Virus record (IMG/VR): IMGVR_UViG_3300022723_000184 | Span: 32,001-96,000 of that record | DNA from: a virus | Lineage: Duplodnaviria > Caudoviricetes | Strand: one strand, 5' to 3' | Length of the DNA: 64,000 bases | Shown: positions 7,801-35,899 of the stretch, in pieces | Numbering within the stretch: the first letter of the stretch is position 1 | How the letters are laid out: every line of letters begins with the position of its first letter | Position numbers and translations under genes: made by a program | The notes under the pieces: generated by a model | Seen by the model: the letters and a program-made list of their open reading frames with translations, nothing else | What the model was told of the DNA's origin: nothing | Databases searched by the model: none

Positions 7801-8831
7801 CTAGCCTACTCACGCGGCAAGGTTGGAAGCCTGTTGCGGAGGTTACGCTCGACGACGAGTTGGCGACGCTGAACCCGGAAACGGAAGAACTGGAGTACCA
7901 CAAACCAACTCACGTGCACTCGTTTGCTCACACGGGGGAGATGTACTACCTGAATACCAAGCACCTCAACATGCTGGTGACGCCGGAGCATCGCTTGTGG
8001 GTTGCTCGTCCGGGCCAGACCTACGGCGAGGTGACGGCTAAAGACTTCTACGAGTCGAAGGGCGAATGGCAGTTCAAGAAAGACTGCAAGTGGGTTGGCG
8101 AAGAACGCTTGTTGATGGAGTTCGAGCCGTACATCGCGAGGAACAGTCGAGAGCAAGTCCTGGAATCTGTACCCATGGACATTTGGCTCAGGTTCATCGG
8201 GTATTACCTGTCAGAGGGTCGAACTTGTCGTACTTCGAGCGGCGGGTATCAGGTGCAGATCAGCCAGTTCCGAACGTCTTCGGTTTGGGAGGACATTCAC
8301 GACACGCTGGTCGAGCTTGGTCTGCGTTTCTCGTACCGAGAAAACGAAAATAGGTTTGAGATCAACTCCAAGTGGTTGTACGGGGTGTTGCTGCCGTTGG
8401 GCAGCGATGCGTACTCGAAGCGAGTGCCGGAATACGTACAAGAACTGTGCTCTCGCCAGATCTCCGTCTTGTTCGATTCTTACATGGAAGGAGACGGACA
8501 TAAGGGGGCGTGCTGGGAGTTTGGAACGTCGAGCGAGCAGTTGGCTTTCGACCTTCAAGTGTTGTGTTTGAAGTTGGGCTGGTGTGTCAAGTTGAAGCCC
8601 GTCGACCGTGAAGACAACCTTCAAAAGAACCCTCACTGGCGGGGCCGAGTTAATCGTTCTCATCTGCGGCCTTGGTGGAAGAAAGGGCAGGCAAAGACCT
8701 ACGCGTCCAACGAAGAGAAGATGGTGCAGTACGACGGCGAGGTCTACTGCGTGACAGTTCCCAATCACATCGTTTATTGCAAGAGGGAGGACAAAACGTA
8801 CTGGTCGCTGAACAGCGGCCGGTACGGCTAG
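1809..8831 (+). CDS. rpoB: Phage multi-subunit RNA polymerase beta subunit, N-terminal ~800 extein aa plus 4 inteins; ends at an in-frame TAG inside the GRxGxKG motif
   Basis: Beta motifs after removing inteins: FVHRGNEYAIKNQQRLRAG, HMGFMDPLRTPE|S, AMASRM|TTQALP, NRK|TYIHQTP..GDLLA, GVNARVAYVPWGGKNFEDAIVIS, MKVGDKM|SGRYG. Confidence 0.92.
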   Translation: MTTISNNLFDQDPANSILPDPSFPQPVPKPAPQEEEPEMRRFGDPIATRRAIYDRVFQAAQEMEPVVGQTHTLRLSNLNWADPEEYSKRKRKEAILSGQTLGRRLRGTWELVNNETGEVQDRTDKTVARIPYVTGSGTFVHRGNEYAIKNQQRLRAGVFTRVKDNGEVEAHANILRGGPSHRYFLDPAKGVFYMRLGQAKIPMMPLLKAMGATDAQLREAWGPEIHAANYGANDASALVKLKEKILKDRSAKQEELVSAFNQMELDPEVTQRTLGQPYENMGLDTLLDTSKKLLAVSRQEADVDDRDHLAYQTFLGPEDLLAERIRKDRGGVRRKLLWKLAREGNLSKLPAAVLQDQVDSALLESGLGQALEEINPAEVFDKQTQISRMGEGGIPSLQAVPDEARGVQPSHMGFMDPLRTPECYDEQTEVMTKQGWKPWPSVTESDEFACLVDGRLEFHLADKLVSYRYVGQMCGAKTALVDYLVTPDHRMYVRRGYDTPHWRIETANETHEAHVRILKCGGHSPYVGMAFDPGLPVFESRSNNSKAIDLATTDPCDWAEFVGWYLSEGNLAVSESRQSYKVMITQSPEANPENHTRIRDLLDRLPFDWSFCNHEKAFVVSRRHLYEWAKPLGKCDDKFIPARCFDWPEEARRSLLEGLLLGDGRKAVKGGRVGRPTQYCSTSRRLAYDVQRLLFTLGVSSRVVFEPDEREDHYLGCWVVHIHARTQRRVGRAHAAKESDFHLESYDGHVYCASVPGGLLYVRRNESCGIWCGNSFRVGVDVHLARNARKGRDGKLYAQFRDARSGKDVWRTPQDVADLAVAFPGSMKSEARRVPAMKNGRIRWVPKEKVDLVLSTFENAFSPLGNMVPLKSMVKGQRVAMASRMSVTGDAWVVVLRKSGDAYYGPIRDYVWRKGDKSPSIDKVTHRLVWKPVRAKLVHRNTKRLMRVTVDSGRSFVATEDHSCVTLGKSGRLEKIKTGDLSKGLPVPYAATLDCPETYQKTWNVPNGNKHNAHPGVAFPLTRDVGWFLGLYVAEGYGVGKDARAVALANISPEVQTRVCRFMADIGLCVKPSSGSDGVNDRVVINWLQLYRKLREDFGDGAYNKRLPAWVHFSPKAFREGLLSGYMAGDGIVSKPVARSTTTGGGSRSLDLVNGLTLLCASLGISTSVSSPWVNTGPGGSRVQQHKFTIRKEHQHLLPVIGHPEKDKKMQRSSWSGKRSYDWIPIFDDLRPMFNRRTQRRDNRRRRLDNRYMGRLDRRDVIDLFGDDAEWATRGWSSSSVWWDRVKRVDEVSSDHEFVYDLDMEDNVFLANGVFVHNTTQALPVANPEAPLVQSAVPGSGGAISFEDEYGSHMGAVRADQPGRVVAVTDDEITVQYADNSRANIELYNNHPYNRKSVTGDTEILIRRRAESGRSRQGLYIWRGPIREYQWRDDDYVLSVCPKTKQSAWKKVIAKTAHPNDKRLLRVKTASGRHVVVTEDHSLVTMGSDGTLVPIYPDDCQVGKTRLPVAKIPEMVSSKTYPGKSRNDGRVVGLYLAEGHCPPSQPNLVTISVEPDDRAETVLALLRTVSEGYEPFRNGGTVCMTAPKLVKRLVKQFGHRSHNKKIPSRFLRYPAEFREGLVEGYMGGDGCFWKDGNGGTNLEATSVSRELRDNLVDLLLSLDVFTTLKTSPRKKYKDAWRDGYRFRVLSGELHKLPRWFVYDDREERLNESIDSQYRASVYEMVPVPDKEARTLVYAGFDKTPLQGKVAKHRLAGSKSVFGKWGVSDVMWDEIVAIESADHEEEVYDLSVQDSEMFAVCHGLVVHNTYIHQTPTVRPGQSFKAGDLLARSNYTNDQGATALGVNARVAYVPWGGKNFEDAIVISDSMAKRLSSEHMYQHDLEISARTRTGKNTYLSLFPGKYDKKTLENMDADGVVKPGTVVQHGDPLILAAEERSRALNKVHKKRQPGFQDNSITWKHHDEGVVTDVVKTKNGPVVLVKGRQEMKVGDKMCYDPETSLLTRQGWKPVAEVTLDDELATLNPETEELEYHKPTHVHSFAHTGEMYYLNTKHLNMLVTPEHRLWVARPGQTYGEVTAKDFYESKGEWQFKKDCKWVGEERLLMEFEPYIARNSREQVLESVPMDIWLRFIGYYLSEGRTCRTSSGGYQVQISQFRTSSVWEDIHDTLVELGLRFSYRENENRFEINSKWLYGVLLPLGSDAYSKRVPEYVQELCSRQISVLFDSYMEGDGHKGACWEFGTSSEQLAFDLQVLCLKLGWCVKLKPVDREDNLQKNPHWRGRVNRSHLRPWWKKGQAKTYASNEEKMVQYDGEVYCVTVPNHIVYCKREDKTYWSLNSGRYG
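3075..4130 (+). mobile_element. Intein 1 in beta (352 aa, LAGLIDADG)
   Basis: CYDEQTEV...WCGN followed by +1 Ser; motifs GWYLSEG and GLLLGDG; more AT-rich than flanks. Confidence 0.9.
4464..5762 (+). mobile_element. Intein 2 in beta (433 aa, Ser1, LAGLIDADG)
   Basis: SVTGDAWV...VYDLDMEDNVFLANGVFVHN followed by +1 Thr; motifs GLYVAEG and GYMAGDG. Confidence 0.9.
5997..7229 (+). mobile_element. Intein 3 in beta (411 aa, Ser1, LAGLIDADG)
   Basis: SVTGDTEI...VYDLSVQDSEMFAVCHGLVVHN followed by +1 Thr; motifs GLYLAEG and GYMGGDG. Confidence 0.9.
7785..8813 (+). mobile_element. Intein 4 in beta (343 aa, LAGLIDADG)
   Basis: CYDPETSL...VYCVTVPNHIVYCKREDKTYWSLN followed by +1 Ser, inside GDKM|SGRYG; motifs GYYLSEG and SYMEGDG. 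Confidence 0.9.
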
Positions 8832-8833
8832 GT

Positions 8834-11800
8834 GATAAAGGAGTTGTTGCCGCGATCATCCCCGACAACCAGATGCCCCACGACAAAGCGGGCAGCCCGT
8901 ACGAGGTGCTGCTCAACCCCCTTGGGGTCATCAGCCGCTGTTACGACGAGCAGACTGAGTTCTTGACGGATCGAGGCTGGGTGTTTGGTCGTGACGTTCA
9001 TCAAGACGACCAGTTCGTTTGCTACCACGTCTGGACCGAGAACCTGTACACAATGCCACAGTTGGAGAAGTTTCACGTTGCGGACTACACAGGCAAAATG
9101 CTGAAGTTTGAGAACAAGCTCATGGACTTCTGCGTCACGCCGAATCACCGCATGTGGGCTGCTTGTGGATACCCCGGCGCGCCATGGCAGGAAGTGACGG
9201 CCGAGCGAATTTTCGACCGAAACGGGTGGAAGGTGCCTGTGGCCGGAAACCCGGTACCCGGTGAAGATCGGGACTTCGTGTTGCCGCAGATCGAGCGCCA
9301 CGTGAAGGATACGCAGTCGTCTGTAGAAGAAATTGTGATTGAAGCCGGGGACTGGGCCGAGTTCCTTGGTTGGTACGTGGCCGAAGGTAACGCCGACGAG
9401 AAAGTCCACATCTCTCAGAGTATCGAGGCTAATCCGGAAAACTGTAGCCGGATCGAGGAGCTGTTGAATCGCCTTCCGTTCGCCTGGAACTACAACGCGA
9501 AGAACACGCAGTTCCACATCACATCGAAGCGTCTTTGTGAGCACCTGAAACCGTTGGGGCTGTGTGATGAGAAGCACGTCCCGGACTGGGTCTTCTCGCA
9601 GAGCCCAGAGACACGGCAGCGGTTCCTAGATAGCTATCTGGCCGGTGACGGCGACAAAGATCAGACGAACAGAGACCATGCGTATTGGGGCGCCGGTACA
9701 ACGTCAAAACAGTTGGCGCAGGACCTCCAGCGACTGCTTATCTACCAAGGCTATTCGGCGAATACGTCGAAGCAGCCTTCGGGTATGTGGCGGGTCGGTA
9801 TTCACGCTAAACGGCACCGAATCTTGGAGAAACAGAACTGGGCCGAAGTTGACTACGACGGTAAGATCTATTGCCCGACGGTGCCAACCGGGTACATCGT
9901 GACTCGCCGCAACGGAAAGGTTTTGATCGCGGGCAACACCAACCCGGCCCAGATGGTGGAGGCCGCGTTGGGCAAGCTCGCCAAGCACCGCGGCCAGCCG
10001 ATCAAGGTCGAGGACTTCGACGAGAACATCGAGGACATGACTGAGTGGGCCAGGGATCAGCTGCGTAAGGCGGGGCTCTCGGACACCGAGGACATTGTCG
10101 ACCCTAGCACCGACAAGAAGATCAAGGGGATCAACACCGGCAACCGCTTCTTCATGAAGCTGCACCACACGGCGGAATGTTTTGACGATCAAACCGAGGT
10201 ACTTACAAAGCGAGGGTGGGTCTCGTGGGTTGATGCGCGAGACGATGATGAGTTCGCGACGCTTGATGGCGGCGACCTTGTTTATGAGCAGGCCGAGCGG
10301 GTAGTTCGCAGCGAGTACTACGGGCAATTGTGTTGTTTTGAGGGCAGATACCTTGACTATGCCGTTACCCCGAATCACCGACTCTGGTTGAAATCTTATA
10401 ACTGGCAAAAGGAGTGGGGGTTTCGCGAGGCCGGTGAGGTTCATGGGCGGCGGTTCTCTGTGCAACAATTCGGTCCCTCGGCGGCAGGTAACAATCCCGC
10501 AACCACTAAGATCGGCGATGACGACGTGGATTGGGATGATTACGCGGAGCTTGTTGGGTGGTGGGTCACTGAGGGGTACGCCAAGGTTACGCGTCGCCGG
10601 GCCTGCGTGATGATCTATCAAAGTGAATCCGCGAACCCGGAAAAACTTGCTAGGATTGAGGAGCTTGTGGCTCGTTTGCCGTGGCCCTGGCATTATTACA
10701 AAGTAAAAGGCGAGATTTTCGGTGTTGGCATTAGTAGTAGGGCACTTGCTGAGCATTTGAAGCAGTACGGAACACATTCACACAATAAGCGCTTACCGCG
10801 GCATCTCCTTGAGGGAGGATTGACCGGGCGACAGCGACTATTCGCGTCGATGATGGATGGCGACGGCAATCGGCAGACCACGCCGACTGGAAACATGGAA
10901 AGATTCACGACGACCTCTAAGGGGTTGGCAGATGATTTTCAGGAGTTGTGTGTTCGATCCGGATTCGGTGCGGTTATCCGCCCGGTTAAGCCGAGGAAAG
11001 AGACGCATTATTTGCCTGCGTGGACTTGCGGCGTCGCGTTGTCGCGAACAACCGCCCAGATCGACGGTGACCGCAATCTGGGCGGGTTCTCCCTTCGCAT
11101 GTACAAAGGCGTTGTTTATTGCGCAACGATGCGAACGGGGATGCTATATGTTCGGCGTAACGGTAAGCCGATGTGGAGCGGTAACTCCAAAGGACAGGGA
11201 CGTGGATCCGGAGGTTATACGGCTGAGGATGCACCGGCGAAGGGCGGCGAGACGGGCAGCAAGAGAATTGCGCTGCTCGATGTTAACGCCCTCCTCTCCC
11301 ACGGCGCTACAGAGGTTCTTCGGGATGCTTCTGCGATTCGCGGGCAGAAAAACGAAGACTACTGGCTGCAGTTCATGCAGGGCTACACACCTAAGCAGCC
11401 GAAGGTCCCGCTCGTCTACGAGAAGTTCGTCAACGAGCTGAAGGGCGCCGGGATCAACGTGGTGCGTGACGGGACGCAGACCAACATCATGGCGCTGACC
11501 GATGACGACATCGATCAGCTGGCCGGCGACCGCACGATCAAGTCGGGCGAGACCGTCCACTTCGACAAGGACCTCAAGCCGATCCCGGGCGGCCTGTTCG
11601 ACCCGGCGGTGACCGGCGGTCACCACGGTCGGCGGTGGGCCGCGATCAAGCTGGCCGAGCCCATGCCCAACCCGGTGATGGAAGAGCCGATCCGTCGAGT
11701 GCTCGGGCTGACTGGCAAGAAGTTCCAGGACATTATCGCGGGCAAGGACACGCTGCCCCGTTACGGCACCGGGCTGCGGGCGATTTCCGAGGCACTCGAA

Positions 11801-12877
11801 AACATCAACCTCGACCGCGAGATCCTGAGGACGCAGGGCGAGATCAAGAACGGGACGAAGGCGGCACGCGACGCCGCCGTGCGAAGGCTCGGCTACCTGA
11901 AGAGCGCCAAGCGGCTCAACATCCACCCGCGACAGTGGATGCTCAAGAAGGCCCCGGTCCTGCCTCCGCAGTTCCGCCCGGTCAGCGTGATGACCGACAA
12001 AGAGATCCCGCTCGTCGCCGATCCCAACTTCCTCTACAAGGAGTTGATCGAGGCGAACAACAACCTCATCGACATGAAAGGTGCGGTCGGCGATGAAGTG
12101 GGTGACGAGCGGCTGGCGGTCTACAACGCGTTCAAGGCGGTGACAGGGCTCGGCGACCCGATCACGCAGGAGTCGAAAGAGAAGAACGTCCGCGGCATCC
12201 TCAAGAGCGTGTTCGGCTCCAGCCCGAAGTTCGGCACCGCGCAGCGGAAGCTCATCGGGACGACGGTCGATAACGTGGGGCGTGCGGTGATCACGCCGAA
12301 CCCCTCGCTCGACATGGACAGCGTCGGCCTGCCCGAGGACCGGGCGTTCGAGGTGTACAAGCGGTTCCTGGTCCGCCGGCTCAAGCGGAAGGGGATGCCT
12401 GTGGCCCAGGCCATGCGGCACGTCAACGAGAAGTCGAGCTTGGCCCGAGACGTCTTGATTGAGGAGATGGAGCAGCGGCCGGTGATCATCAACCGGGCGC
12501 CCGTCCTCCACCGGTTCGGGATCATGGCCTTCAAGCCTCGCCTGGTGAAGGGCAGCACCCTGCAGGTGAGCCCGCTGGTCGTGAAGGGGTTCAACGCTGA
12601 CTTCGACGGCGACGCCATGAACTACCACGTGCCGACGGACGAGGAGGCCCGCAAAGAGGCTCTCGACCGGATGCTCCCCAGCCGCCAGTTGCTGAGCCCG
12701 TCCGACTTTAAGTCGCCGGTCCACGCTCCGAGCCAGGAGTACGTCGGCGGTCTGTACCACGCCACCGCAAGCAAGAGCGAGCGGCCGGTTCGGACGTTCG
12801 CCAGCCAGAAGGACGCGATCGCCGCGTACAGGCGAGGCGAGATCAGCATCGACGACCAGGTGCAGATCATCGGGTAG
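8834..12877 (+). CDS. rpoB-rpoC: RNAP beta C-terminus fused in frame to beta' N-terminal half (catalytic NADFDGD), with 2 inteins; no credible start codon of its own
   Basis: DKGVV, LLNPLGVISR|TNPAQ, FMKLHHTAE|SKGQGR and YEKFVNELKGAGINVV are the end of beta. These run directly into PGGLFDPAVTGG, KLAEPMPNP, PVLPPQFRP, VGRAVITP, RPVIINRAPVLHRFGI and GFNADFDGDAM (12593-12613), which are beta'. Confidence 0.92.
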   Translation, partial: DKGVVAAIIPDNQMPHDKAGSPYEVLLNPLGVISRCYDEQTEFLTDRGWVFGRDVHQDDQFVCYHVWTENLYTMPQLEKFHVADYTGKMLKFENKLMDFCVTPNHRMWAACGYPGAPWQEVTAERIFDRNGWKVPVAGNPVPGEDRDFVLPQIERHVKDTQSSVEEIVIEAGDWAEFLGWYVAEGNADEKVHISQSIEANPENCSRIEELLNRLPFAWNYNAKNTQFHITSKRLCEHLKPLGLCDEKHVPDWVFSQSPETRQRFLDSYLAGDGDKDQTNRDHAYWGAGTTSKQLAQDLQRLLIYQGYSANTSKQPSGMWRVGIHAKRHRILEKQNWAEVDYDGKIYCPTVPTGYIVTRRNGKVLIAGNTNPAQMVEAALGKLAKHRGQPIKVEDFDENIEDMTEWARDQLRKAGLSDTEDIVDPSTDKKIKGINTGNRFFMKLHHTAECFDDQTEVLTKRGWVSWVDARDDDEFATLDGGDLVYEQAERVVRSEYYGQLCCFEGRYLDYAVTPNHRLWLKSYNWQKEWGFREAGEVHGRRFSVQQFGPSAAGNNPATTKIGDDDVDWDDYAELVGWWVTEGYAKVTRRRACVMIYQSESANPEKLARIEELVARLPWPWHYYKVKGEIFGVGISSRALAEHLKQYGTHSHNKRLPRHLLEGGLTGRQRLFASMMDGDGNRQTTPTGNMERFTTTSKGLADDFQELCVRSGFGAVIRPVKPRKETHYLPAWTCGVALSRTTAQIDGDRNLGGFSLRMYKGVVYCATMRTGMLYVRRNGKPMWSGNSKGQGRGSGGYTAEDAPAKGGETGSKRIALLDVNALLSHGATEVLRDASAIRGQKNEDYWLQFMQGYTPKQPKVPLVYEKFVNELKGAGINVVRDGTQTNIMALTDDDIDQLAGDRTIKSGETVHFDKDLKPIPGGLFDPAVTGGHHGRRWAAIKLAEPMPNPVMEEPIRRVLGLTGKKFQDIIAGKDTLPRYGTGLRAISEALENINLDREILRTQGEIKNGTKAARDAAVRRLGYLKSAKRLNIHPRQWMLKKAPVLPPQFRPVSVMTDKEIPLVADPNFLYKELIEANNNLIDMKGAVGDEVGDERLAVYNAFKAVTGLGDPITQESKEKNVRGILKSVFGSSPKFGTAQRKLIGTTVDNVGRAVITPNPSLDMDSVGLPEDRAFEVYKRFLVRRLKRKGMPVAQAMRHVNEKSSLARDVLIEEMEQRPVIINRAPVLHRFGIMAFKPRLVKGSTLQVSPLVVKGFNADFDGDAMNYHVPTDEEARKEALDRMLPSRQLLSPSDFKSPVHAPSQEYVGGLYHATASKSERPVRTFASQKDAIAAYRRGEISIDDQVQIIG
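8939..9937 (+). mobile_element. Intein 5 (333 aa, LAGLIDADG)
   Basis: CYDEQTEF...IYCPTVPTGYIVTRRNGKVLIAGN followed by +1 Thr; motifs GWYVAEG and SYLAGDG. Confidence 0.9.
10178..11185 (+). mobile_element. Intein 6 (336 aa, LAGLIDADG)
   Basis: CFDDQTEV...VYCATMRTGMLYVRRNGKPMWSGN followed by +1 Ser; motifs GWWVTEG and SMMDGDG. Confidence 0.9.
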
Positions 12878-13605: not shown

Positions 13606-13868
13606 TCGTCGAAATCATCAGCGACGGCAAACCGCTACGCATCCCGGCGAGTCAGTTGGTCGTCTTTGACGACAACGGCACGCCGATTTGCGTTGCGGGC
13701 GAGTACGGGCCGGACGGTGCGTACAAGGTCTCGCACGCGGCCGACGAAGACTTCAACCAAAGCCTGCGTGCCTTCGGGGTTGGAAGGCACCAGGTCGTCA
13801 CAGATTTCCTAGAGCCACCTCCCGTTCCCGGCGGGGCGAGGCCGCTTACAGGACCATCGAAAGGATGA
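13602..13868 (+). CDS. Hypothetical protein, 88 aa
   Basis: GTGA overlap with the upstream gene and ATGA overlap with the downstream gene. Confidence 0.7.
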   Translation: MIVEIISDGKPLRIPASQLVVFDDNGTPICVAGEYGPDGAYKVSHAADEDFNQSLRAFGVGRHQVVTDFLEPPPVPGGARPLTGPSKG

Positions 13869-14794
13869 GCGTCATGTCCGATCACCCCAAGAACACGAAC
13901 CACATCTACGGCAGCAACAACAAATCGGTCGTCGACAACCGGCATGGTGACCGAAAGGGCAGACCGGGTCAGCCATTGAAAGCGAACCCGAGTTACCTAA
14001 CGAACAAGGACAACCCGTCGGCCGACAAGTACTACCGCAACCCGACGGAGGGCGGCCAGGAGGTGGCCCCGAACTCCAACGTTTCGACCAGCTCTTACCT
14101 CCACCCGCAGAGCACGGCTCCCCTCTCGCTCACGAACGAAGCGGACATGGGCGGGGTCTTCGACCTGATCCTCGGCCGCCTGCGTTCGGGCCAGGCCAAG
14201 GTGATCGTCCAGGTGACCGACGCCAACCTGGAGCGGCGTCTCGACGCCCGCCTCGACATGGCCCAGGCCCGCCAGCAAATTGACAACCGACAGCGTGCCG
14301 CCGTCCAGATCGGGCGCCCCGCTGCCTTGTCCGCGGCTACCGTGGCCGCCCCGACGCCCACCCCGACCACCGAGCGTCAGGCCGACGACGACCTGGCGTC
14401 CGACATCGACCCGGAGGCCTACGTGAACGGCGAGCTGCCCGAAGACGCGATCGACACCAACGCCTCGGCCGTGGCCGTCATCGAGGGCCCGGAGGCAGGC
14501 ACCGACGAGGGCGAGGACCTGGGCGAGGAGCCCGGGCCCGAGGGCGAGCCCGGCGAACCGCAGGCCTCGGACGGGGACGGCGGGGACGATGACGACGATG
14601 ACGACGACGGCGATGACGGGGACGACGATGACGACGAGGAGGAGGATGACGACGATGGCGAAGAAGAAGCTCCGGAAGGCGAGGAAGACGAAGAGGACGA
14701 GTTCGGCGACGTGCTAGACGACGTCGAAGAAGAACTCGACGACGACCTGGCGGACCTCGACGAAGAGCCCGAGTCTCATCTTCCAAGCCGATGA
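13865..14794 (+). CDS. Protein with an extremely acidic C-terminal tail, 309 aa
   Basis: ATG at 13865 coupled to the upstream stop; the final ~100 aa are mostly D/E. Confidence 0.75.
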   Translation: MSVMSDHPKNTNHIYGSNNKSVVDNRHGDRKGRPGQPLKANPSYLTNKDNPSADKYYRNPTEGGQEVAPNSNVSTSSYLHPQSTAPLSLTNEADMGGVFDLILGRLRSGQAKVIVQVTDANLERRLDARLDMAQARQQIDNRQRAAVQIGRPAALSAATVAAPTPTPTTERQADDDLASDIDPEAYVNGELPEDAIDTNASAVAVIEGPEAGTDEGEDLGEEPGPEGEPGEPQASDGDGGDDDDDDDDGDDGDDDDDEEEDDDDGEEEAPEGEEDEEDEFGDVLDDVEEELDDDLADLDEEPESHLPSR

Positions 14795-14840
14795 GCAGGC
14801 ATTGCGCCCGGTCAGTATAACTTCAAAAGTACTTTTTGAA
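14773..14840 (+). repeat. Direct repeat copy 1 (CTCATC-N9-GATGAG inverted repeat plus TTCAAAAGTACTTTTTGAA box)
   Basis: Aligns with 21583-21652. Confidence 0.85.
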
Positions 14841-14857
14841 TCGGGGCACGGAGGCCC

Positions 14858-17800
14858 ATGAAGGCGACGGTCGGTCAACTTCTGGTGAACGACGCACTCC
14901 CGGAGGACATGCGGGACTACCAAATGGTCCTCGACAAAAAGGGTGTGCGGAATCTCATGGCCGACCTGGCCCGTAAGCACCCGGAGGATTACCGGGAGGT
15001 CAGCCACAAGCTCTCACAGATCGGTTGGCGTTCGGCCCAGGAATCCGGCGGCTACAGCTTCGGCTTGGAGCACATGCTCAAAAGCAAGACCGGCCGAGAG
15101 ACCCGCCAACGCATCCAGAAAAAGATCAACGAGATCCTCGCCGACGACCGGCTCACCGACGAGCAGCGTGAGCAGCTGATCCTCAAGCACATCGGCAAGG
15201 AACGCGAGGCCATGCAGTCGGGGATCTTCGACGAGGCCCGCGCCGCGAAGAACCCGCTGGCCATGCAGGTGTTGGGCTCGGGCCGCGGCAACCCGATGAA
15301 CCTGTCGAGCCTGTTGGGCTCGGACCTGCTGTACACCGACCAGCGTGACCGGCTGATTCCGATCCCCGTGCTCCGCAGTTACAGCGAGGGCCTGAGCCCC
15401 GCCGAGTACTGGGCCGGGACCTACGGCGCCCGCAAGGGCGTGATGTGTTTGGCTAAAGGAACTCAGGTGCTGATGGCCGATTACACGGACAAGCCGATCG
15501 AGAAGGTGAAACCTGGTGACTGGGTGATGGGATCTGATCGTCAAGGGCGGATGACGCCTGTGAGGGTTATCCGTCGTTACTACAACGGTGTGCAGCCTTG
15601 CTACCGCTACCGATTTCGCAAAAATAGTTGCCGTTTGCCGTCCTCGCATCGAACACTCGTGGCGACCGAAAAGCATAAGGTCCTTGCCACCGTAAAAGCC
15701 GGACGACCCGGTTCAACCTATGCACACCGGTCAATCTACGTCCCGACACCATTACCGCTTGAAGCGGCGCGTCTGCTTAAAAATCCAGTAAAGAATGAAT
15801 ACGTGGCGACGCCGGCGGCCGGGGAGGCGGGCGAGCAGTCCCGAGTGCGAGAACCGTCGGCCTTGTTGTATGGGTTGATGCTCGGCGACGGGTGTATGGC
15901 AGAATCGACCCGTGGGCGGTATTTGTTGTCGTGCAATGACCCGCTCCTTTTGGACGACCTGCGTGAGTACATCTCATTGTTCGACGTGTTTTTGGACAAA
16001 GCAGGCGGTGATAATTACAACTATACGCTGGCGGGCGATGGGGGGGCTGCGGTTGCGGTCGATTTGAAGACGCGTCTCGGCGAGAAATTGGCCCACGATA
16101 AGGAGCTTCCAGAGGGTTGTTTCGCATGGGACGATGTTTCGGTTGGTCAGTTGCTCGGAGGATTGTTTTCCACCGACGGCTCGATTACTGGCCGAAACGG
16201 TAACGCAACAATTAAGTTGACACTTTCTTCCCGGCGTATGGTGGAACAAGTGCAACGACTGTTGGAACTCCGGTTGGGTATATGGTCCGGCGGGCTGATC
16301 TTCACAGCTAAAGAAAAGAAGAAGAACGCAACGCACGACCAATGGGGTTTTGCGGTGTCACACGCTGCGTCGGTTGCCAGGTTTTTCGCGCGGGTCCCCT
16401 TGTACGGCAAGAAGAGGGTTCAGGCGAAGCGTATCGCGGCTACCATGAAACCGGACCACTCAAACGGGTCACCGGGGTTTAAGATCTACGATCGAGAACC
16501 GGCTGGCGAAATTGCTACATATGATTTGGAGGTTGATCACCCAGACCACCTGTTTGTGCTTTCTAGCGGCCTGGTCGTGTCCAACAGCACGAAGTTCGCC
16601 ACCCAGGAGGCGGGCTTCCTCTCTAAGCAGCTCAACCAGATGGGCCACCGCCTGGTGGTCACAGATGAGGACGGGGACGGCGAGCCCGATTCGCTCCGCG
16701 GCCTGCCGGTGGATGTCGACGACCCGGACTCCGCGGGAAGCCTGCTGGCCCACGACGCCGGCGGCTACAAGCGGAATACGGTGATCACGCCCAAGATCCT
16801 GCACAACCTTCGCCGCCAAGGTCTCAAGCGGATACTGGTCCGCAGCCCCACGGTCGGTGGTAGCCCTGAGGGTGGTATCTACAGCCGTGACGCCGGCGTC
16901 CGCGAGAAGGGCGGGCTCCCGGGTCGCGGCGAGAACATCGGCCTGGCCGCTGCCCAGGCGTTGTGTTTGTCTGGAGGGACGAGAGTCCAGATGGCCAACG
17001 GAGAGGTCAAAGCGGTGGAGGACGTTAAGCCCGGAGATGTAGTTCTGGGATGCAGTGTCGACGGGGTGTTGCGGCCTGTTCCTGTGCTTGACGCTTGTTT
17101 CAGCGGCATTAAATCGTGTGTGAAGGCCCTGTTCAGGCGGGGCACGGGTAAGGCCGCCAAAGACAATCTGCTAGAGCTGGTCGCGACTCCAGAGCACAAA
17201 ATACTCTCCGAGATTGTTGTTCGTTCGGGTAGGGGTTCGGTAAAACGTGTTCCTTACTTCGATCCGGTTGCCGTTCGCCCGCTCGGAACCAAAATCCCAC
17301 ATGAAAAGCGATCAGGGGGCGATCGGTTCTGCGCTAAACTGGCGTCGTCCTTTGACGATACCGGGCTTGGTGTTCAACCTTTAGCTTTTCTTTTGGGTCT
17401 GGTAATCGGTGATGGTTGCTATAGCGGATCAGCGAACTGCGTAGGGTTCAGCTGTTATGATCCGGTGCTCGCCGCTGACGTCGGTGCGTATCTCAAGCCG
17501 TTGAACTTCGAGATCAAAAACAACACGGATAACGAGTACCGCGTTGTCGATACAACGCACCGCCAAGTGAAGCGACGCGAAGATGGTAGCTGGTATCGCA
17601 GCCGTCTTATTGAGCTGCTTCGTGTCGAGGGAATGTTCGGGCAGACGAGCAGTATTAAGACTTTGCCGAAGTCCGTGCACTCGTGGGATAACGCGTCTGT
17701 GGCTGCGCTGATCGCCGGTCTGCTCGTAACGGACGGGTACGTGATATCGACGGGCGGTTTGGGGTTCGGATCGAACTCTAAGTGCTTGCTGGATGGCGTT

Positions 17801-20800
17801 CGGCAGCTTCTAGGGTTGCGGTGGGGCGTCTGGGGTTCGTCGGTTATATCTTCCACGAAGAAGCGTGCTGATGGTGATGAGTACGCCCCTAACTGGCGGT
17901 TTACGGTTAATCGCAGAGACGATGTTAATCTTCTTCGTTCTATTCTTCCTGTCGCTGGCGTGAAACGTGGTCGGCTAGACTCGCTGTTATCGAAGTGGAA
18001 CTCGAAACGGCGTTCGGCAAGAGGCGCGCCTAGAGTCAAGGGTCGGTGTACTCGTATTTCATTGGAACGGGTCGGCGAGTTGCCGACATACGACCTGTAC
18101 ATCGCACACCCTGATCACCTTTTCGTGTTGGCCAACGGACTGGTTGTTTCCAACTCCGAGCCCCTGAGTCAGGCTCAGCTTTGCCTTGCAGCAGGGACTC
18201 TAGTGCGGATGGCCGACTGGACGGTGAAACGGATCGAGCAGGTCCGGGCTGACGAACAAATCATGGGAGCCGACAAATCCGGGCGGCTGTTTCCGGTGCG
18301 CGTTGTCCGGGTCTACGACAACGGAGAGCGGGAGTGTGTTCGGACGGTATTCCGGGAAGCCAAAACGAAGCAACACGTCGATCTGGTCAGCACCGGAGAC
18401 CACAAACTCTTGTCCAAGACAAGGCATTGGGCGATACCGTCCGAGCGAGTGGAACACGGCGTGTTTCCGGTCGCCCGGAAATGTGTTGGCTACTCGGCCA
18501 AGATGCCGTTCGCGGTCGTAAACGATCACGGCTGTGCAGAACCGTTTGCCGGCCTGTGCGGTCTGCTGCTGGGTGATGGAGGGTATACTGTCAGCGTTCA
18601 CGGGGTTCACTGGTCTTGTTTCGAGCCGGACCTGGTGGAAGAGATGCAGCCTTACCTGGCAGGACTGGGTTTGAAGGCTACGAAGCTCCAAGGGCACGAA
18701 GGGCACGAAGGCTATTACCGAATCAGCCAGGTCGAAGACGCGATTCGGCAAGACCCGGAGACCGGACGAGTGCTGCCCGGAGACCGTAATCCGGCACTGA
18801 TCTGGTTGAAGCAGCACCGGATGTACGGCAAGTACGCACACGAGAAAGAGATTCCCGAGGAGATTTGGAGTTGGGACCAAAACTCGGTTGCACGATTGCT
18901 GGGCTGCCTGTTTGCGACAGACGGTAGCGTTTATCCGCCGACGCAGCGACCCGATGAACTCTATATCAACTTCAGCTCAACTTCTTTGGAGCTTGCGAAG
19001 CAGGTCAAGGAACTAATTCAGGTCCGCTTTGCGATTCATAGCTCGTCGATCGGAAGCCACAAGGGAAAACGCAAGCGGAAGCTTTATTCGTTCACGATCA
19101 CCCGCAAAGAACAGGTCAGACGGTTCGCGTCTCGGATCGCGGTTCCGGCGCGTAAAGGACAGATGCTGGCCGACTATCTGCCAAAACTCCAGGAAGACGA
19201 GTCCACCGAGTATTTCCATCGCCAGCGGCAGGAACCCGTGGGCACGGTTGCGACATACGATCTCGAAGTCGACCATCCGGACCATCTTTTCGTGCTGGCC
19301 AACGGTCTGATTGTTTCTAACTCGGCCAAGCACTCGGGCGGCGTGGCCGGCAGCGAGAAGGCGGTCTCCGGGTTCGACTACATCAACCAGCTGATCCAGG
19401 TGCCCAAGAAGTTCAAGGGTGGTGCGGCCCATGCCCAGGTCGACGGCATCGTGAGCCGGATCGAAGAGGCTCCGGCCGGTGGCAAGTACGTCGTGATCAA
19501 TAACGAGAAGCACTACGTCGGTCCGGACTTCTCGTTGAAGGTTAAGCGAGGCGACGAGATTGAGGCGGGCGACGTCCTGAGCGAGGGCATCCCGAACCCG
19601 TCGGAGGTCGTGCGCCACAAGGGCGTTGGCGAAGGTCGGCGGTACTTCACCCAGGCCTTCCGCCAGGCGATGCATGAAGCTGGGATACACGCCAGCCGCC
19701 GCAACGTGGAACTGTTGGGTCGGGGCCTGATCGACCATGTGCGGATGACGGATGAGTACGATCAGTACGTCCCGGACGATGTGGTACCCTACAGTGCACT
19801 GGAGCACCGGTGGCAACCCCGGGAAGGGAGCCGCCGGGTCCCGTACAAGCAGGCGGTTGGCAAGTACCTGGAGCGTCCGGTCCTCCACTACACGATCGGC
19901 ACGAAGATCCGGAAATCGATGCTCAAGGACTTCGAGGACTTCGGGGTCGAGGAGCTGGAGACCCATGACGAGCCGCCGCCGTTCGAGCCCGAGATGATCC
20001 GGGGCATGTACTCGGTCCAACACGATCCCGACTGGATGACCAGGATGTACGGCTCAGGCCAGAAGAAGAGCTTGCTGAGTGCCGTGCACCGTGGCGGGAC
20101 CAGTGACGAGCTGGGCACCTCGTTCGTCCCGGGCCTGGCCCGTGGCGTCGACTTCGGCCGGCAGGGCCTGGTCACGCCGCCCGCCCCACCCCAGAAGATG
20201 GGCAGCGACATGCAGAAGGAAGCGGAGGGCATGTGGGGAACCGGGGCCATCCCGGGCTCACCCAACTTCAACCTGCAGCAGCAGGCCCGCCAGTCGTACA
20301 ACGTCGGCAACAGCATGCTCAGCAGTATGCGTGGCGGCGGTGGCGTGGGTCCGGCAACGGCCGGCGACGCCAACCGGTTCCGACAGTACCTCTCGTCTTT
20401 CGCCGCTGCCCCCGGCCCCACCGGGGCACCTGCCGGTCAGGCTGCTGCGTCCGTGGCCCGCCCGGCGGCTGCTACGGCCGGCAGTGCCGCGACCGGCAAC
20501 GGCCTGACCACCGCCGACTGGCACGCGTGGAGTGCTGGACCGATGGGGGCGGGCGCCGCGACCAAGGCCGGGACCCGTCCGCTGGCCGCTGCTGCCCTGC
20601 GGTACGCACCGGCCGTGGCCAAGGCCCCGGGCATCCGCAACCTGGTGGGCGCTATGGCCCGGCCCTCGGCCGCCGCCCAGGCGTTGAGCGGGGTGAAGCC
20701 GCAGATGCCGGGCACCGTCTCGAAGTGGCTGCGGCCCGGCTACCACCAGTACGCGACCAAGGTCCTGGGTCAGTCCCACAACCTGGCTCAGGGTGCCGGC

Positions 20801-21604
20801 AAGTTCGGGCGGTTCGCGGGCAAGGCTGGGCGACTCGCTGGTCCGTTGGGCCTGGCGGTCGCCCCGCTGGAGTTCGGGATCCGTGGCGGCAGCGAGCTTT
20901 ACGACATGGCCACGGGTCAGGACACCTTCGGGAACATGGTCGACCAGCGGCTGCGGGACGCTGGCAACTGGCAGGGGCCGACGGGTTATGCGGGCGCCGT
21001 GCTCAACACACCGTTCAGTCCGTCGAGCGTGGCGGCCTTGGGCAAAGCCAAATACGACCTGGCGATGGCCCCCATCCAATCGTTTGCCCAACGACGCCAA
21101 TCGCTGGCCGCGGGCAACCGGCTCAACGAGCAGCTGGCCGAGAACCGCGAGGCGGCGGGTGGCGTCGACGAGCTGCTGCAGCACGCTCCGAAGGACATCG
21201 CCAGCCGGTACGCCCGGAAATACGTGGACGACACGCCCTGGTACGGTCTGGGCGGGTTCAATCCGTTCGTGAACGATCAGGGCCGCATGACGTGGGTCGA
21301 CAAGGGGACCGGCGAGGAAGCTGGTTCCGGGGCCATGCAGGCGATCGAGCAGGTCAAACAGCAGAACCAAGATCGTGAAGCGGCACAGGAGGCCGCGAGG
21401 TACGCGAGGCAAAAACCGCAGCAGGCCGCGGTGGTCCAGGCGAAACCGGCTGCTCCGGCACCCGCTCAAGAGGCCCGTGCGGCGTCGCTCCTCGGCAACC
21501 CGATCTACCGACAAGTGCTCAGCCAGGTCAGCGCCCAGAGCCCGGAAATGGGAGCGATGCTCCTGCTGTCAGGTGCCGATCCGTCTCATCTTATGGGCCG
21601 ATGA
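14858..21604 (+). CDS. rpoC: RNAP beta' C-terminal half with 3 inteins and a ~460-aa Ala/Gly-rich C-terminal extension
   Basis: GSGRGNPMNL, SYSEGLSPAEYW, YGARKGVM|STKFATQEAGFLSKQL (bridge helix), ILVRSP, NIGLAAAQAL|SEPLSQAQL|SAKHSGG (trigger loop), GDVLSEG; RBS CACGGAGG. Confidence 0.92.
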   Translation: MKATVGQLLVNDALPEDMRDYQMVLDKKGVRNLMADLARKHPEDYREVSHKLSQIGWRSAQESGGYSFGLEHMLKSKTGRETRQRIQKKINEILADDRLTDEQREQLILKHIGKEREAMQSGIFDEARAAKNPLAMQVLGSGRGNPMNLSSLLGSDLLYTDQRDRLIPIPVLRSYSEGLSPAEYWAGTYGARKGVMCLAKGTQVLMADYTDKPIEKVKPGDWVMGSDRQGRMTPVRVIRRYYNGVQPCYRYRFRKNSCRLPSSHRTLVATEKHKVLATVKAGRPGSTYAHRSIYVPTPLPLEAARLLKNPVKNEYVATPAAGEAGEQSRVREPSALLYGLMLGDGCMAESTRGRYLLSCNDPLLLDDLREYISLFDVFLDKAGGDNYNYTLAGDGGAAVAVDLKTRLGEKLAHDKELPEGCFAWDDVSVGQLLGGLFSTDGSITGRNGNATIKLTLSSRRMVEQVQRLLELRLGIWSGGLIFTAKEKKKNATHDQWGFAVSHAASVARFFARVPLYGKKRVQAKRIAATMKPDHSNGSPGFKIYDREPAGEIATYDLEVDHPDHLFVLSSGLVVSNSTKFATQEAGFLSKQLNQMGHRLVVTDEDGDGEPDSLRGLPVDVDDPDSAGSLLAHDAGGYKRNTVITPKILHNLRRQGLKRILVRSPTVGGSPEGGIYSRDAGVREKGGLPGRGENIGLAAAQALCLSGGTRVQMANGEVKAVEDVKPGDVVLGCSVDGVLRPVPVLDACFSGIKSCVKALFRRGTGKAAKDNLLELVATPEHKILSEIVVRSGRGSVKRVPYFDPVAVRPLGTKIPHEKRSGGDRFCAKLASSFDDTGLGVQPLAFLLGLVIGDGCYSGSANCVGFSCYDPVLAADVGAYLKPLNFEIKNNTDNEYRVVDTTHRQVKRREDGSWYRSRLIELLRVEGMFGQTSSIKTLPKSVHSWDNASVAALIAGLLVTDGYVISTGGLGFGSNSKCLLDGVRQLLGLRWGVWGSSVISSTKKRADGDEYAPNWRFTVNRRDDVNLLRSILPVAGVKRGRLDSLLSKWNSKRRSARGAPRVKGRCTRISLERVGELPTYDLYIAHPDHLFVLANGLVVSNSEPLSQAQLCLAAGTLVRMADWTVKRIEQVRADEQIMGADKSGRLFPVRVVRVYDNGERECVRTVFREAKTKQHVDLVSTGDHKLLSKTRHWAIPSERVEHGVFPVARKCVGYSAKMPFAVVNDHGCAEPFAGLCGLLLGDGGYTVSVHGVHWSCFEPDLVEEMQPYLAGLGLKATKLQGHEGHEGYYRISQVEDAIRQDPETGRVLPGDRNPALIWLKQHRMYGKYAHEKEIPEEIWSWDQNSVARLLGCLFATDGSVYPPTQRPDELYINFSSTSLELAKQVKELIQVRFAIHSSSIGSHKGKRKRKLYSFTITRKEQVRRFASRIAVPARKGQMLADYLPKLQEDESTEYFHRQRQEPVGTVATYDLEVDHPDHLFVLANGLIVSNSAKHSGGVAGSEKAVSGFDYINQLIQVPKKFKGGAAHAQVDGIVSRIEEAPAGGKYVVINNEKHYVGPDFSLKVKRGDEIEAGDVLSEGIPNPSEVVRHKGVGEGRRYFTQAFRQAMHEAGIHASRRNVELLGRGLIDHVRMTDEYDQYVPDDVVPYSALEHRWQPREGSRRVPYKQAVGKYLERPVLHYTIGTKIRKSMLKDFEDFGVEELETHDEPPPFEPEMIRGMYSVQHDPDWMTRMYGSGQKKSLLSAVHRGGTSDELGTSFVPGLARGVDFGRQGLVTPPAPPQKMGSDMQKEAEGMWGTGAIPGSPNFNLQQQARQSYNVGNSMLSSMRGGGGVGPATAGDANRFRQYLSSFAAAPGPTGAPAGQAAASVARPAAATAGSAATGNGLTTADWHAWSAGPMGAGAATKAGTRPLAAAALRYAPAVAKAPGIRNLVGAMARPSAAAQALSGVKPQMPGTVSKWLRPGYHQYATKVLGQSHNLAQGAGKFGRFAGKAGRLAGPLGLAVAPLEFGIRGGSELYDMATGQDTFGNMVDQRLRDAGNWQGPTGYAGAVLNTPFSPSSVAALGKAKYDLAMAPIQSFAQRRQSLAAGNRLNEQLAENREAAGGVDELLQHAPKDIASRYARKYVDDTPWYGLGGFNPFVNDQGRMTWVDKGTGEEAGSGAMQAIEQVKQQNQDREAAQEAARYARQKPQQAAVVQAKPAAPAPAQEARAASLLGNPIYRQVLSQVSAQSPEMGAMLLLSGADPSHLMGR
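15446..16585 (+). mobile_element. Intein 7 in beta'C (380 aa, LAGLIDADG)
   Basis: CLAKGTQV...TYDLEVDHPDHLFVLSSGLVVSN followed by +1 Ser; motifs GLMLGDG and GLFSTDG. Confidence 0.9.
16964..18154 (+). mobile_element. Intein 8 in beta'C (397 aa, LAGLIDADG)
   Basis: CLSGGTRV...TYDLYIAHPDHLFVLANGLVVSN followed by +1 Ser; motifs GLVIGDG and GLLVTDG. Confidence 0.9.
18182..19321 (+). mobile_element. Intein 9 in beta'C (380 aa, LAGLIDADG)
   Basis: CLAAGTLV...TYDLEVDHPDHLFVLANGLIVSN followed by +1 Ser; motifs GLLLGDG and CLFATDG. Confidence 0.9.
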
Positions 21605-21652
21605 GCAGGCATTGCGATCTCGGTCAGTGTACCCTCAAAAGCACTTTCGAAA
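21583..21652 (+). repeat. Direct repeat copy 2
   Basis: GTCTCATCTT-ATGG-GCCGATGAGCAGGCATTGCG-ATCT-CGGTCAGTGTACCCTCAAAAGCACTTTCGAA matches copy 1. Confidence 0.85.
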
Positions 21653-32167: not shown

Positions 32168-32238
32168 TGTCCGGAACTCGTGGACACCGGCACAATCGCC
32201 GCAGGCAAGGACGACCAAAAACGAGAAGGAGTCTCACC

Positions 32239-33654
32239 ATGAGCAGCGCCCAGGAGAGCATGCAGACCATCGAGAGCTTCCTCGATCAGGTCGGCGCTCA
32301 ACCCGAGAAAAAGGCCGCCGAGGCCAACACCGAAGCCGGCGGTTACGACGGCGCTACCACCCACCCGGTGAAGGACGTCGACGACCGGACGGAGGACGCC
32401 GACGAAGGCGCCCGCTCGTCCGAGAACTCCGAGGACACGAAGGACGACAAGATCGGCCCGGGCAAGCCCTCGGTCGACGCGACGTCCGAGGCCAAGGCCA
32501 AGGTCGGTGCCGACGAGGGCACCGCGGCCAGCGACCAGACGCAGATCGGCACGAACAAGCAGCCGACCGGCGACGACCCCTCGAACGAGACGCAGGGCAC
32601 CAAGCCCGGCAAGGAGGACGGTCAGTACGACGGTCCCTCCACCCACCCCGCCCGCACCGACAACAACGAGCTGGACGGTAACAAGTACTCGGCCGACCTC
32701 TCGGGCATGTCGATCGCTCAGCTTGCCAAGGAGGCCGCGGATCTCGGCAACGAGATCTGCGCCGACATCGCCAACGAGGCCACCACGGCCAAACAGGCGA
32801 TGGACAAGTGCCCCGGTTGCAAGGAAGACAAGGGTTCTTGCAAGTGCGGCATGTACGGCAAAGACAAGTACGACAAAAGCATGCACGGCAAAGACAAGTA
32901 CGACAAAAGCATGCACGGCAAAGACGAGTACGACAAAGAGGCAGGCGATCAACTCTCGCAGCAGGTCGGCTGGGAGATGGCCGGCCTGGTGACCGGCAAC
33001 TTCGACAAGAAGGCCGCGGACTCGATGGTGCACAGCGCCCTCAAGGACGTGGTGAAGACGGCCAGCGACGACGCGGACAACGTTGTCGAGTACCTCTCGG
33101 CCTATGACCTAGCCGAAAAGGAGGCTGCGGAGAAAGCCGCGATGGGCGGCGATCCGCTGGGAGGTATGCCGGGCGGTGACGCCGGCGCCATTCCTCCCGA
33201 GGCCCTGGGCGCTGCGCCCGGAGCTGCGCCGGCCCTCGCTCCGGCTCCGGCTGGTCCCGAAGGCGGTGCTCCCGAAGGCGGTGCTCCCGAAGGCGGTGCT
33301 CCCGAGGGCGGTGCCCCTGAGGACGAAGCGGCCATGCTCGCCGCGGTCCTCGACGAACTGGGTGTGAGCCCGGAGGAGCTGGAAGCGGCCCTGGCCGCTC
33401 AGGGCGGCGGTGGCGGTCTCCCCGGTGCCGAGGCCCCCGCTGGCCCTGCTCCAGCGGGCGGTGAGGGCGACGAGGAAGCCGGTGCGATGGAGGCCCAGGC
33501 TTCGGCCGGCGCCACCAAGAAGGCCGGCGATCCGACCACCGAAGAGAAGAAGGCCGAGATGAAAAACTACATCTCGGAGATCGTCACCCGCTCCCGTCAG
33601 AAGCGGGCCGCGGACAAGGCGAAGAAGGACACGGAAGCCGCGAAGGGCTCCTGA
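32239..33654 (+). CDS. Capsid scaffolding / prohead core protein, 471 aa
   Basis: Acidic, low-complexity, many K-x-A motifs, positioned between protease and capsid genes; AAGGAG RBS. Confidence 0.7.
   Translation: MSSAQESMQTIESFLDQVGAQPEKKAAEANTEAGGYDGATTHPVKDVDDRTEDADEGARSSENSEDTKDDKIGPGKPSVDATSEAKAKVGADEGTAASDQTQIGTNKQPTGDDPSNETQGTKPGKEDGQYDGPSTHPARTDNNELDGNKYSADLSGMSIAQLAKEAADLGNEICADIANEATTAKQAMDKCPGCKEDKGSCKCGMYGKDKYDKSMHGKDKYDKSMHGKDEYDKEAGDQLSQQVGWEMAGLVTGNFDKKAADSMVHSALKDVVKTASDDADNVVEYLSAYDLAEKEAAEKAAMGGDPLGGMPGGDAGAIPPEALGAAPGAAPALAPAPAGPEGGAPEGGAPEGGAPEGGAPEDEAAMLAAVLDELGVSPEELEAALAAQGGGGGLPGAEAPAGPAPAGGEGDEEAGAMEAQASAGATKKAGDPTTEEKKAEMKNYISEIVTRSRQKRAADKAKKDTEAAKGS
32849..32938 (+). 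repeat. 3 x 30-bp coding tandem repeat (M[YH]GKD[KE]YDK[SE])
   Basis: GCATG(T/C)ACGGCAAAGAC(A/G)AGTACGACAAAA repeated three times. Confidence 0.9.
33256..33315 (+). repeat. 4 x 15-bp coding tandem repeat (PEGGA)
   Basis: CCCGAAGGCGGTGCT repeated. Confidence 0.9.
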
Positions 33655-35792: not shown

Positions 35793-35815
35793 GCCCTGAT
35801 CAGCTGAACCGATGA

Positions 35816-35846
35816 GGGGCCTGGTCCTCGGGCCGGGTCCCTTTTT
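35816..35846 (+). terminator. Intrinsic terminator after the MCP
   Basis: GC-rich stem GGGGCCTGGTC/GGCCGGGTCCC (with G-U pairs) followed by TTTTT. Confidence 0.7.
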
Positions 35847-35899
35847 CACGAACCGGGCCAGCCCGCCGGCTAAAAGGCGGGACCACGAAGGGAAGACCC

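Follow-up and report, generated by a model that had tools for sequence, protein, structure and literature searches.

Solitary type V-M CRISPR repeats at both ends of the RNA polymerase beta'C gene of a phage that encodes Cas12m

The direct repeat and its composition

We analysed a stretch of 64,000 nucleotides (the window; C1:32001-96000 of the 201,946-bp virus record IMGVR_UViG_3300022723_000184, Caudoviricetes) in which a direct repeat of ~65 bp brackets the gene of an RNA polymerase beta' C-terminal subunit (beta'C); positions are those of the window unless marked C1 or L. Nearly all genes of this phage are located on the plus strand. The gene upstream of the first repeat copy (13688-14794, +) encodes a 368-aa protein with an acidic, D/E-rich tail that matches no Pfam or PHROG family, and its stop codon falls within copy 1; the beta'C gene (14858-21604, +; 2248 aa, including Rpb1 domain 5) has its stop codon within copy 2. 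The two copies, reported at 14773 and 21583 in an earlier note on this DNA, were both found in the sequence as claimed. Their pairwise alignment starts abruptly at GTCTCATC (14773 and 21583, respectively) and runs over ~65 bp to ...CTTT, with one 2-nt indel. With up to three mismatches allowed, the window has three occurrences of a 20-nt core, GCCGATGAGCAGGCATTGCG, versus 0.00 expected from 100 shuffles; the third is located at 40753-40772 on the minus strand. Also as described earlier, each copy contains a CTCATC-N9-GATGAG inverted repeat and overlaps a stop codon: the open reading frame (ORF) 13688-14794 ends in ...EPESHLPSR*, ORF 14858-21604 ends in ...DPSHLMGR*, the TGA of GATGAG serving as the stop codon in either case.

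While the extent of ~65 bp was confirmed, the view of the repeat as one unit was not, as its 3' third (TCAAAAGTACTTT) is a separate motif found throughout the genome. Repeat finding splits the sequence into the first ~39 bp, which have an inverted copy at 40752-40790, and the last ~29 bp, with an inverted copy at 31986-32014. The direct repeat is a composite of a 36-nt repeat of the CRISPR type on the minus strand, a -10-like box, and an AT-rich palindrome on the far side. Both copies contain a single type V-M (Cas12m) CRISPR repeat, whose functional reading is on the minus strand.

The solitary repeat unit of copy 1 is located at 14773-14808 (-) and reads GGCGCAATGCCTGCTCATCGGCTTGGAAGATGAGAC in the RNA sense. 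On its antisense strand, ORF 13688-14794 comes to its end, the final 7 codons (SHLPSR) and the TGA (14792-14794) being contributed by the repeat. Two covariance models of the repeat, R1 and R2, built from 11 and 15 units, detect it with E=1.3e-13 and E=1.9e-11, respectively. The -10-like box TATACT (14814-14819, -) ends 5 nt upstream of the unit, and the first 20 nt past its terminal GAGAC (14753-14772, -) are the predicted guide, as judged from the orientation of the repeat. Copy 2 (21583-21618, -; ATCGCAATGCCTGCTCATCGGCCCATAAGATGAGAC) is built in the same manner: its antisense strand encodes SHLMGR followed by the TGA (21602-21604) that ends the beta'C ORF, the model scores are E=1.4e-12 (R1) and E=2.7e-10 (R2), the box TACACT (21626-21631, -) ends 7 nt upstream, and the predicted guide (21563-21582, -) would be antisense to the last beta'C codons. 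No second repeat was found by the covariance models within hundreds of nt of either copy; both are solitary. At gathering thresholds, Rfam gave no match in the window. We noted a terminator-like hairpin with a T-run (21415-21432, -) within the coding sequence of beta'C, ~150 nt downstream of copy 2, which could end an antisense RNA of ~200 nt starting from this copy.

A cognate Cas12m system in the same genome

Across the 202 kb of the genome, the core motif was found at 15 sites, 10 of which are arranged in tandem at 151.5-152.2 kb. These belong to a CRISPR array (C1:151503-152247) in which 11 repeats of 36 nt alternate with unique spacers of 20-38 nt (10 of 36-38 nt and one of 20 nt). Directly upstream of the array and on the same strand, ~105 kb away from copies 1 and 2, lies a gene for a 589-aa Cas12m protein. 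It was recognized by PADLOC as Cas12u1 (1.8e-98), contains a Cas12f1-like TNB domain (Pfam), and aligns over its full length with the Cas12m chain 23vw_A of the PDB ('CRISPR-associated DNA-binding protein Cas12m', 5.9e-67), in addition to a match to Cas12m2 (8hhl, 1.5e-26). Judging from the alignment to the PDB chain, the D-E-D triad of the RuvC domain is apparently intact. In the leader of the array, 7 nt separate a TATAAT box from the first repeat, which is the same layout as that of the -10-like boxes of copies 1 and 2.

In the RNA sense the repeat reads ...AATGCCTGCTCATCGG...GATGAGAC, and its hairpin lies 3', adjoining the spacer. This orientation was assigned because the TATAAT box precedes the array and because a Cas12m with 46% identity has its array downstream on the same strand. 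To our knowledge, a 3' repeat hairpin beside the spacer is the arrangement of all Cas12 systems. Read in the minus-strand sense, copies 1 and 2 are identical to the CRISPR RNA (crRNA) repeat of TfCas12m at 28 of 36 positions, and to those of Ms, Un and Mk at 24-27 of 36 (repeats from PMC11013384, Table S5); AAUGCC...GCUCA...UGAGAC is common to copies 1 and 2 and the TfCas12m repeat. The two copies therefore show what characterizes a type V-M repeat, namely a 36-nt unit ending in GAGAC, a two-stem structure with covariation (see below), and a cognate effector plus array in the same genome.

The 46%-identical Cas12m is encoded on an unrelated metagenomic contig of 87 kb and 38% GC, where it is followed on the same strand by an array of at least nine similar 36-nt repeats (L046:10001-12541). 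The 21.7-kb stretch analysed from this contig contains no solitary units, and the cas12m-array module is the only part it has in common with the phage; the module therefore moves between elements. The exact repeat pattern was not found in other IMG/VR records. Among 185,579 prokaryote species genomes it gave two chance matches, both without the conserved 5' part, and no array with this repeat. Four matches were obtained in metagenomes. Only two of them have the appearance of real units, one on contig L017 and, less convincingly, one on L015, and both contigs are unrelated to the phage. The former, a 2.5-kb contig, carries a strong solitary Cas12m-type repeat (L017:2269-2305, +; R2 E=1.2e-8) ~30 nt ahead of an AGGAGG ribosome-binding site (RBS) and an ATG, and the repeat-before-RBS layout described below may thus exist outside the phage.

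A family of solitary repeat units at gene boundaries

The earlier note had proposed a motif search across the whole genome, and further copies do exist: besides the 11 array repeats, the two models together detect 18 solitary units. Four of them are located in the window, i.e. copies 1 and 2, a diverged unit (35857-35883, +) and a canonical one (40751-40786, +). The canonical unit is in the sense orientation, with a TATAAT box 28 nt upstream, and its GAGAC is followed after 12 nt by the RBS (GGAGG) and the start codon (ATG, 40799) of an ORF of 119 aa. The diverged unit has the stem CCCGCC/GGCGGG and a 3' GAC, ends 16 nt before an ATG, and is detected by R2 with E=0.0015. It lies 41 nt downstream of the CTGATC-N9-GATGAG sequence at 35796-35816 (+), which had been considered a degenerate copy of the direct repeat. 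The latter sequence is not a member of the family; neither covariance model detects it, and a terminator-like hairpin with a T-run follows directly downstream.

The stems of the units vary considerably in sequence (CTCATC/GATGAG, CGCACC/GGTGCG, CATATC/GATATG, CCCGCC/GGCGGG, CTCGCT/AGCGAG) while their complementarity is kept. Among 15 units, compensatory changes were found in five of nine base pairs, and 97.6% of the alignment cells are paired versus 88% in shuffles, with none of 500 shuffles reaching the observed value; when the partner columns are slid by one or more positions, pairing falls to 23-46%. In a 3-bp stem of the pseudoknot type, the solitary units have G-C where the array repeats have A-U. 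This covariation is the mark of an RNA structure under selection and not of a protein operator. In 15 related jumbo phages (330 kb; 37-55% aa identity to the neighbouring 845-aa protein) we found a single weak match to R2 (E 0.08), no Cas12m and no GCTCA-N12-15-TGAGAC motif.

With respect to the genes, 10 units (including copies 1 and 2) are antisense and eight are sense, and the two groups differ in their surroundings. Antisense units are mostly found at the 3' ends of genes. The ends of three plus-strand genes fall, in the same frame, within a unit, giving SHLPSR*, SHLMGR* and SHLLNR* (the last at 136 kb), and another gene stops immediately ahead of one. That three unrelated proteins end in SHL..R* is explained by the inserted repeat, which provides their last codons and stop; the shared tails are a by-product of the repeat, whose antisense strand has a TGA in one frame. 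For annotation, this accounts for an ending that is otherwise puzzling in unrelated proteins. A TAnnnT box (TATACT, TACACT, TATAAT, TACAAT or TAGAAT) is present 1-7 nt upstream in eight of the 10 antisense units, in agreement with the leader of the array, compared with about one of the eight sense units even within 12 nt (background rate 2.2%). Seven of the eight sense units end 11-24 nt ahead of a start codon, so that the RBS falls inside the would-be guide. The simplest reading of these two classes is that the repeat RNA must be expressed, with sense copies riding on the transcription of the gene and antisense copies bringing their own promoter.

One of these seven units is in the 5' untranslated region of cas12m itself, which contains a partial hairpin (CTGCTCATC-N8-GATGAGAC; C1:149541-149575, +, corresponding to L009:14542-14576), followed by an A10 run and an RBS, 20 nt before the start codon. 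The presence of a unit at this site suggests that Cas12m could act on its own mRNA.

Other features of the window

The AT-rich palindrome on the far side of copy 1 (module B; CAAAAGTACTTTTTG, 14824-14838) precedes the RBS and the ATG (14858) of beta'C, and a degenerate palindrome of the same kind (CAAAAGCACTTTCG, 21636-21649) is found by copy 2. Module B is a 12-14-nt sequence, AAAAGTACTTTTT, i.e. AAAA(A)GTACTTTTT, with ~15 copies in the genome. Every copy lies between plus-strand genes, 2-42 nt ahead of the next start codon, often overlapping a TAA stop; 14824-14838, 32003-32014 and 57968-57979 are the sites in the window, and 12 further ones occur in the rest of the genome. No module B was found in the 22-kb loci of the 15 related phages. 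We considered module B as a part of the CRISPR-type repeat and rejected this, as it is an independent motif genome-wide and absent from the loci of the relatives; perhaps it serves this phage specifically as a promoter or as a mark of gene starts.

Inteins were noted at 1809-8831, 8672-12877 and 14858-21604, and at L009:4904-7861 (-). The polymerase genes of the phage, which encode multisubunit beta/beta' enzymes, are rich in them (Intein_splicing, LAGLIDADG and Hom_end matches). Comparison with relatives places three inteins in the beta'C ORF 14858-21604, at residues ~204-576, 704-1107 and 1108-1488. Four 42-nt repeats at 3075, 7785, 8939 and 10178 resemble intein N-termini, and an intein is also present in the terminase large subunit. 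The Asp/Glu tract of the 368-aa protein is encoded at 14567-14680 by GAC/GAT/GAG repeats with a 9-nt period, and the ORF at 32158-33654 (+) contains two short in-frame tandem repeats with a period of 15 nt (32849-32938 and 33252-33326).

Proposed function of the solitary units

The sequence shows that copies 1 and 2 are Cas12m repeats with a cognate cas12m gene and array, that covariation keeps their structure, that the promoter box goes with orientation, and that the family is particular to this phage as against its relatives. Taken together, we consider it fairly probable that these solitary units, placed antisense and equipped with a leader-like -10 box, work with the type V-M Cas12m system of the phage itself, and that each is transcribed into a crRNA-like RNA bound by Cas12m. 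RNA polymerase would start on the minus strand at or beside the first base of the 36-nt repeat, which would generate a ready-made crRNA 5' end. The RNA would then fold into a Cas12m handle, comprising the 6-bp stem, the 3-bp pseudoknot-type stem and the 3' GAC, to which the phage Cas12m would bind. The next ~20 nt would serve as a guide; in copy 1 they are antisense to the final codons of the gene for the 368-aa protein, and in copy 2 to those of beta'C. Where the unit itself lies, the match to the guide is flanked by the repeat end (GAC) and not by a T-rich protospacer-adjacent motif (PAM), and self-targeting is therefore not expected. Transcription, loading of Cas12m and the role of the loaded complex are steps that we infer from the sequence. 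As to this role, we rank first a guide-directed binding, either to a form of this site that has a PAM, such as might be met in co-infecting relatives, or to complementary RNA of the phage where the genes adjoin; a function as decoy or buffer of Cas12m ranks second.

A more far-reaching version of this idea, which we offer tentatively and regard as doubtful, is that the phage has made Cas12m a genome-wide device acting on its own gene junctions. Leader-plus-repeat cassettes would have been inserted at these junctions, with the flanking phage sequence becoming the guide. Antisense units would be self-immune and directed against un-inserted, PAM-bearing sites in relatives, resulting in a homing-like exclusion, or they might tether Cas12m in trans to the mRNA 3' end of the upstream cistron; sense units, including that of cas12m, might tether Cas12m in cis over ribosome-binding sites.

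The sequence next to the units is of interest in this respect. The flank upstream of the cassettes is TTG in four of four family-1 units and TTC in the unit at 124139, although the TTG is perhaps part of the copied cassette. If it was not copied along with the cassette, this flank would place a TTN PAM beside the guide match in the un-inserted allele. By eye, target-site duplications consistent across units were not seen, and the C-terminal tails of beta'C and the 368-aa protein, at which an empty site would be sought, cannot be aligned in the diverged relatives. The unit at 124139 (C1:124039-124174, -) has a second, diverged repeat 64 nt on (124039-124074), so that the pair resembles a mini-array. 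The flank of this unit, which lies between the two repeats, matches a paralogous intergenic region at 189.1 kb in 28 of 29 positions; targeting was rejected as an explanation and the match is read as paralogy, since there is a mismatch in the seed and no T-rich PAM. The matching region (C1:189125-189153) is promoter-like and seems to carry a decayed repeat remnant.

Several observations weigh against a function of copies 1 and 2 as crRNA-like RNAs. For their guides, the phage genome offers no further PAM-flanked site, only matches of 13-16 nt at chance level, and the spacers of the array are without convincing targets in relatives, INPHARED phages and plasmids. (One match of an array spacer to a Kocuria plasmid, E 0.2, is attributed to chance; the plasmid lacks the repeat.) A sigma-70 scan detected no -35 partner and no full minus-strand promoter at either copy, only the -10-like box, and terminator-like sites downstream of antisense units are not enriched over background. 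Because several units are related by descent, the promoter-box statistic rests on approximately four independent lineages. The orientation of the units is near-random (10 antisense, eight sense), and their intergenic siting could reflect simply where insertions are tolerated.

Alternative explanations

Some of these observations would also be accounted for if the units were selfish or decaying cassettes, i.e. leader-plus-repeat copies spread around the genome, kept only at gene boundaries, where insertions are tolerated, and now without function, the protein tails being accidents of insertion. Units 5222 and 7620 are identical over ~58 nt, and this identity stops exactly at GAGAC, as expected for a copied cassette; the near 50:50 orientation and the lack of targets for the guides in the phage genome agree with this view as well. 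However, the compensatory changes in five of nine pairs across old, diverged copies indicate selection on the RNA structure, the presence of the promoter box tracks orientation, and seven of the eight sense copies stop 11-24 nt ahead of a start codon. We thus regard functionless cassettes as unlikely.

Similarly, we think it quite improbable that the units are decoys of the RNA anti-CRISPR (Racr) type, in which promoter-driven solitary repeats would soak up the Cas12m of the host, or buffer that of the phage itself, without any guiding. Copies 1 and 2 do fit the layout of a promoter plus a solitary repeat (PMC10651486), provided that their -10-like boxes act as promoters. Yet the phage itself encodes the cognate Cas12m and array, no array with this repeat exists in the 185,579 prokaryote species genomes searched, and 18 copies with widely diverged stems are unlike the mimicry of one host repeat. 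Moreover, sense copies have no promoter and are placed ahead of ribosome-binding sites.

Readings of the repeat on the plus strand are very unlikely, whether as a hairpin promoter used by the RNA polymerase of the phage, as an operator for a protein, or as an intrinsic terminator or stabiliser of mRNA 3' ends. The antisense strand also folds into a 6-bp hairpin and the copies are placed at the 3' ends of plus-strand genes, but the conserved unpaired bases fit Cas12m repeats in the minus-strand sense only, no T-run follows the hairpin, a terminator scan found no site at either copy, and relatives with homologous beta'C subunits lack the motif. Promoters of the N4 type consist of a short hairpin on the template of early genes, located upstream of the genes they drive and recognized by a single-subunit virion RNA polymerase. 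The units studied here have a 9-nt loop, occur in both orientations and, if antisense, at gene 3' ends, and the polymerase genes of this phage are multisubunit. What survives of the promoter suggested in the earlier note is that the ~65 bp appear to include one, in the form of a -10-type box that would drive the minus strand, and not of a hairpin as in N4 that would drive the plus-strand genes. Likewise, the suggested RNA-processing site was close in that the hairpin is a CRISPR RNA handle, albeit read on the strand opposite to the one noted. The operator also put forward there conflicts with stems that change in sequence while pairing is kept, five of nine pairs being compensatory. Finally, the proposed recombination scar, with direct repeats (20 and 10 nt of exact identity) flanking one gene and permitting excision or exchange of a beta'C cassette, is the least probable explanation, as the repeats are two of an 18-member family at many unrelated gene junctions, relatives carry beta'C without the repeat, and excision would lose an RNA polymerase subunit conserved in 14 of 14 alignable relatives.

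Comparison with known systems

We thus favour solitary units of the phage's own Cas12m system, and it is instructive to compare them with described ones. Cas12m is a programmable protein that binds PAM-flanked DNA without cutting it and blocks transcription (PMC11013384, PMC10442227); the PAM of GoCas12m is 5'-TTN (PMC11013384). The phage units share with the handles of TfCas12m, MsCas12m, MkCas12m and GoCas12m (PMC11013384, PMC10442227) the 36-nt repeat, the two-stem layout, a 3' ...UGAGAC beside the guide, and independence of a trans-activating crRNA (tracrRNA). In contrast to those repeats, they stand outside an array, and their 'spacer' is the adjoining sequence of the phage itself.

Solitary repeat units (SRUs) of viruses and Racr have been described by Camara-Wilpert et al. 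2023 (PMC10651486; Faure et al. 2019 as cited there). Viral SRUs as described imitate the repeats of the host and are 'not associated with cas genes' (PMC10651486). The similarity to our units is that of a single CRISPR repeat in a virus genome directly downstream of a promoter-like box. Unlike in SRUs and Racr, however, the phage owns the effector and the array, its 18 units include several diverged structural variants, and many are located before ribosome-binding sites or at gene 3' ends. Having its own cas12m and array, and with no host array found among the species genomes searched, the phage does not provide a standard case of an SRU or Racr.

Standalone repeats also occur in CRISPR-cas loci, where crRNA-like regulatory RNAs include CreA/CreR and tracr-L, and repeat-like elements are found upstream of cas12a (Shmakov et al. 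2023, PMC10120712). As in the CreA/CreR and tracr-L types, the phage units combine a repeat-like element with a pseudo-spacer, for which recruitment of the effector for a non-immune use is proposed, and the unit in the cas12m 5' untranslated region recalls the elements upstream of cas12a. CreA/CreR types are located inside cas loci and their spacers are partly complementary to promoters, whereas the phage units are dispersed over the genome. A CreA/CreR mini-array has a pseudo-spacer against a PAM-flanked promoter; for the phage units only the chance matches of 13-16 nt mentioned above were found in the phage genome.

A further parallel is offered by TnpB, whose omega-RNA, in work of Meers et al. 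from 2023, is reportedly located at the right ends of IS200/IS605 elements. Here as there, a scaffold would be found at the edge of an inserted unit, the flanking genomic DNA would be the guide, and the un-inserted site the natural target. Unlike for TnpB omega-RNA, we found neither a transposase nor transposon ends with the phage units, nor a consistent motif at the target sites. A structural kinship between Cas12m and the TnpB reRNA has been remarked on (PMC11013384).

Finally, the myxophage MV-1 encodes cas12m and an array, with no adaptation genes and with spacers without detectable targets (bioRxiv 10.64898/2026.09.14.751636). The present phage resembles MV-1 in its phage-borne cas12m and array and in spacers that lack detectable targets, but differs in its solitary repeats, of which the MV-1 preprint makes no mention. 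In the literature searched, we found no case that combines an effector and an array with ~18 solitary handles whose structure is maintained and which are placed at gene boundaries of the phage itself, apparently in two expression classes. The solitary repeats described in other viruses are decoys against host immunity (PMC10651486); the placement of Cas12m handles at the starts and ends of the phage's own genes, including both ends of beta'C, points to a use of a CRISPR effector that the papers searched do not describe, in which the virus would control its own genes or compete over them.

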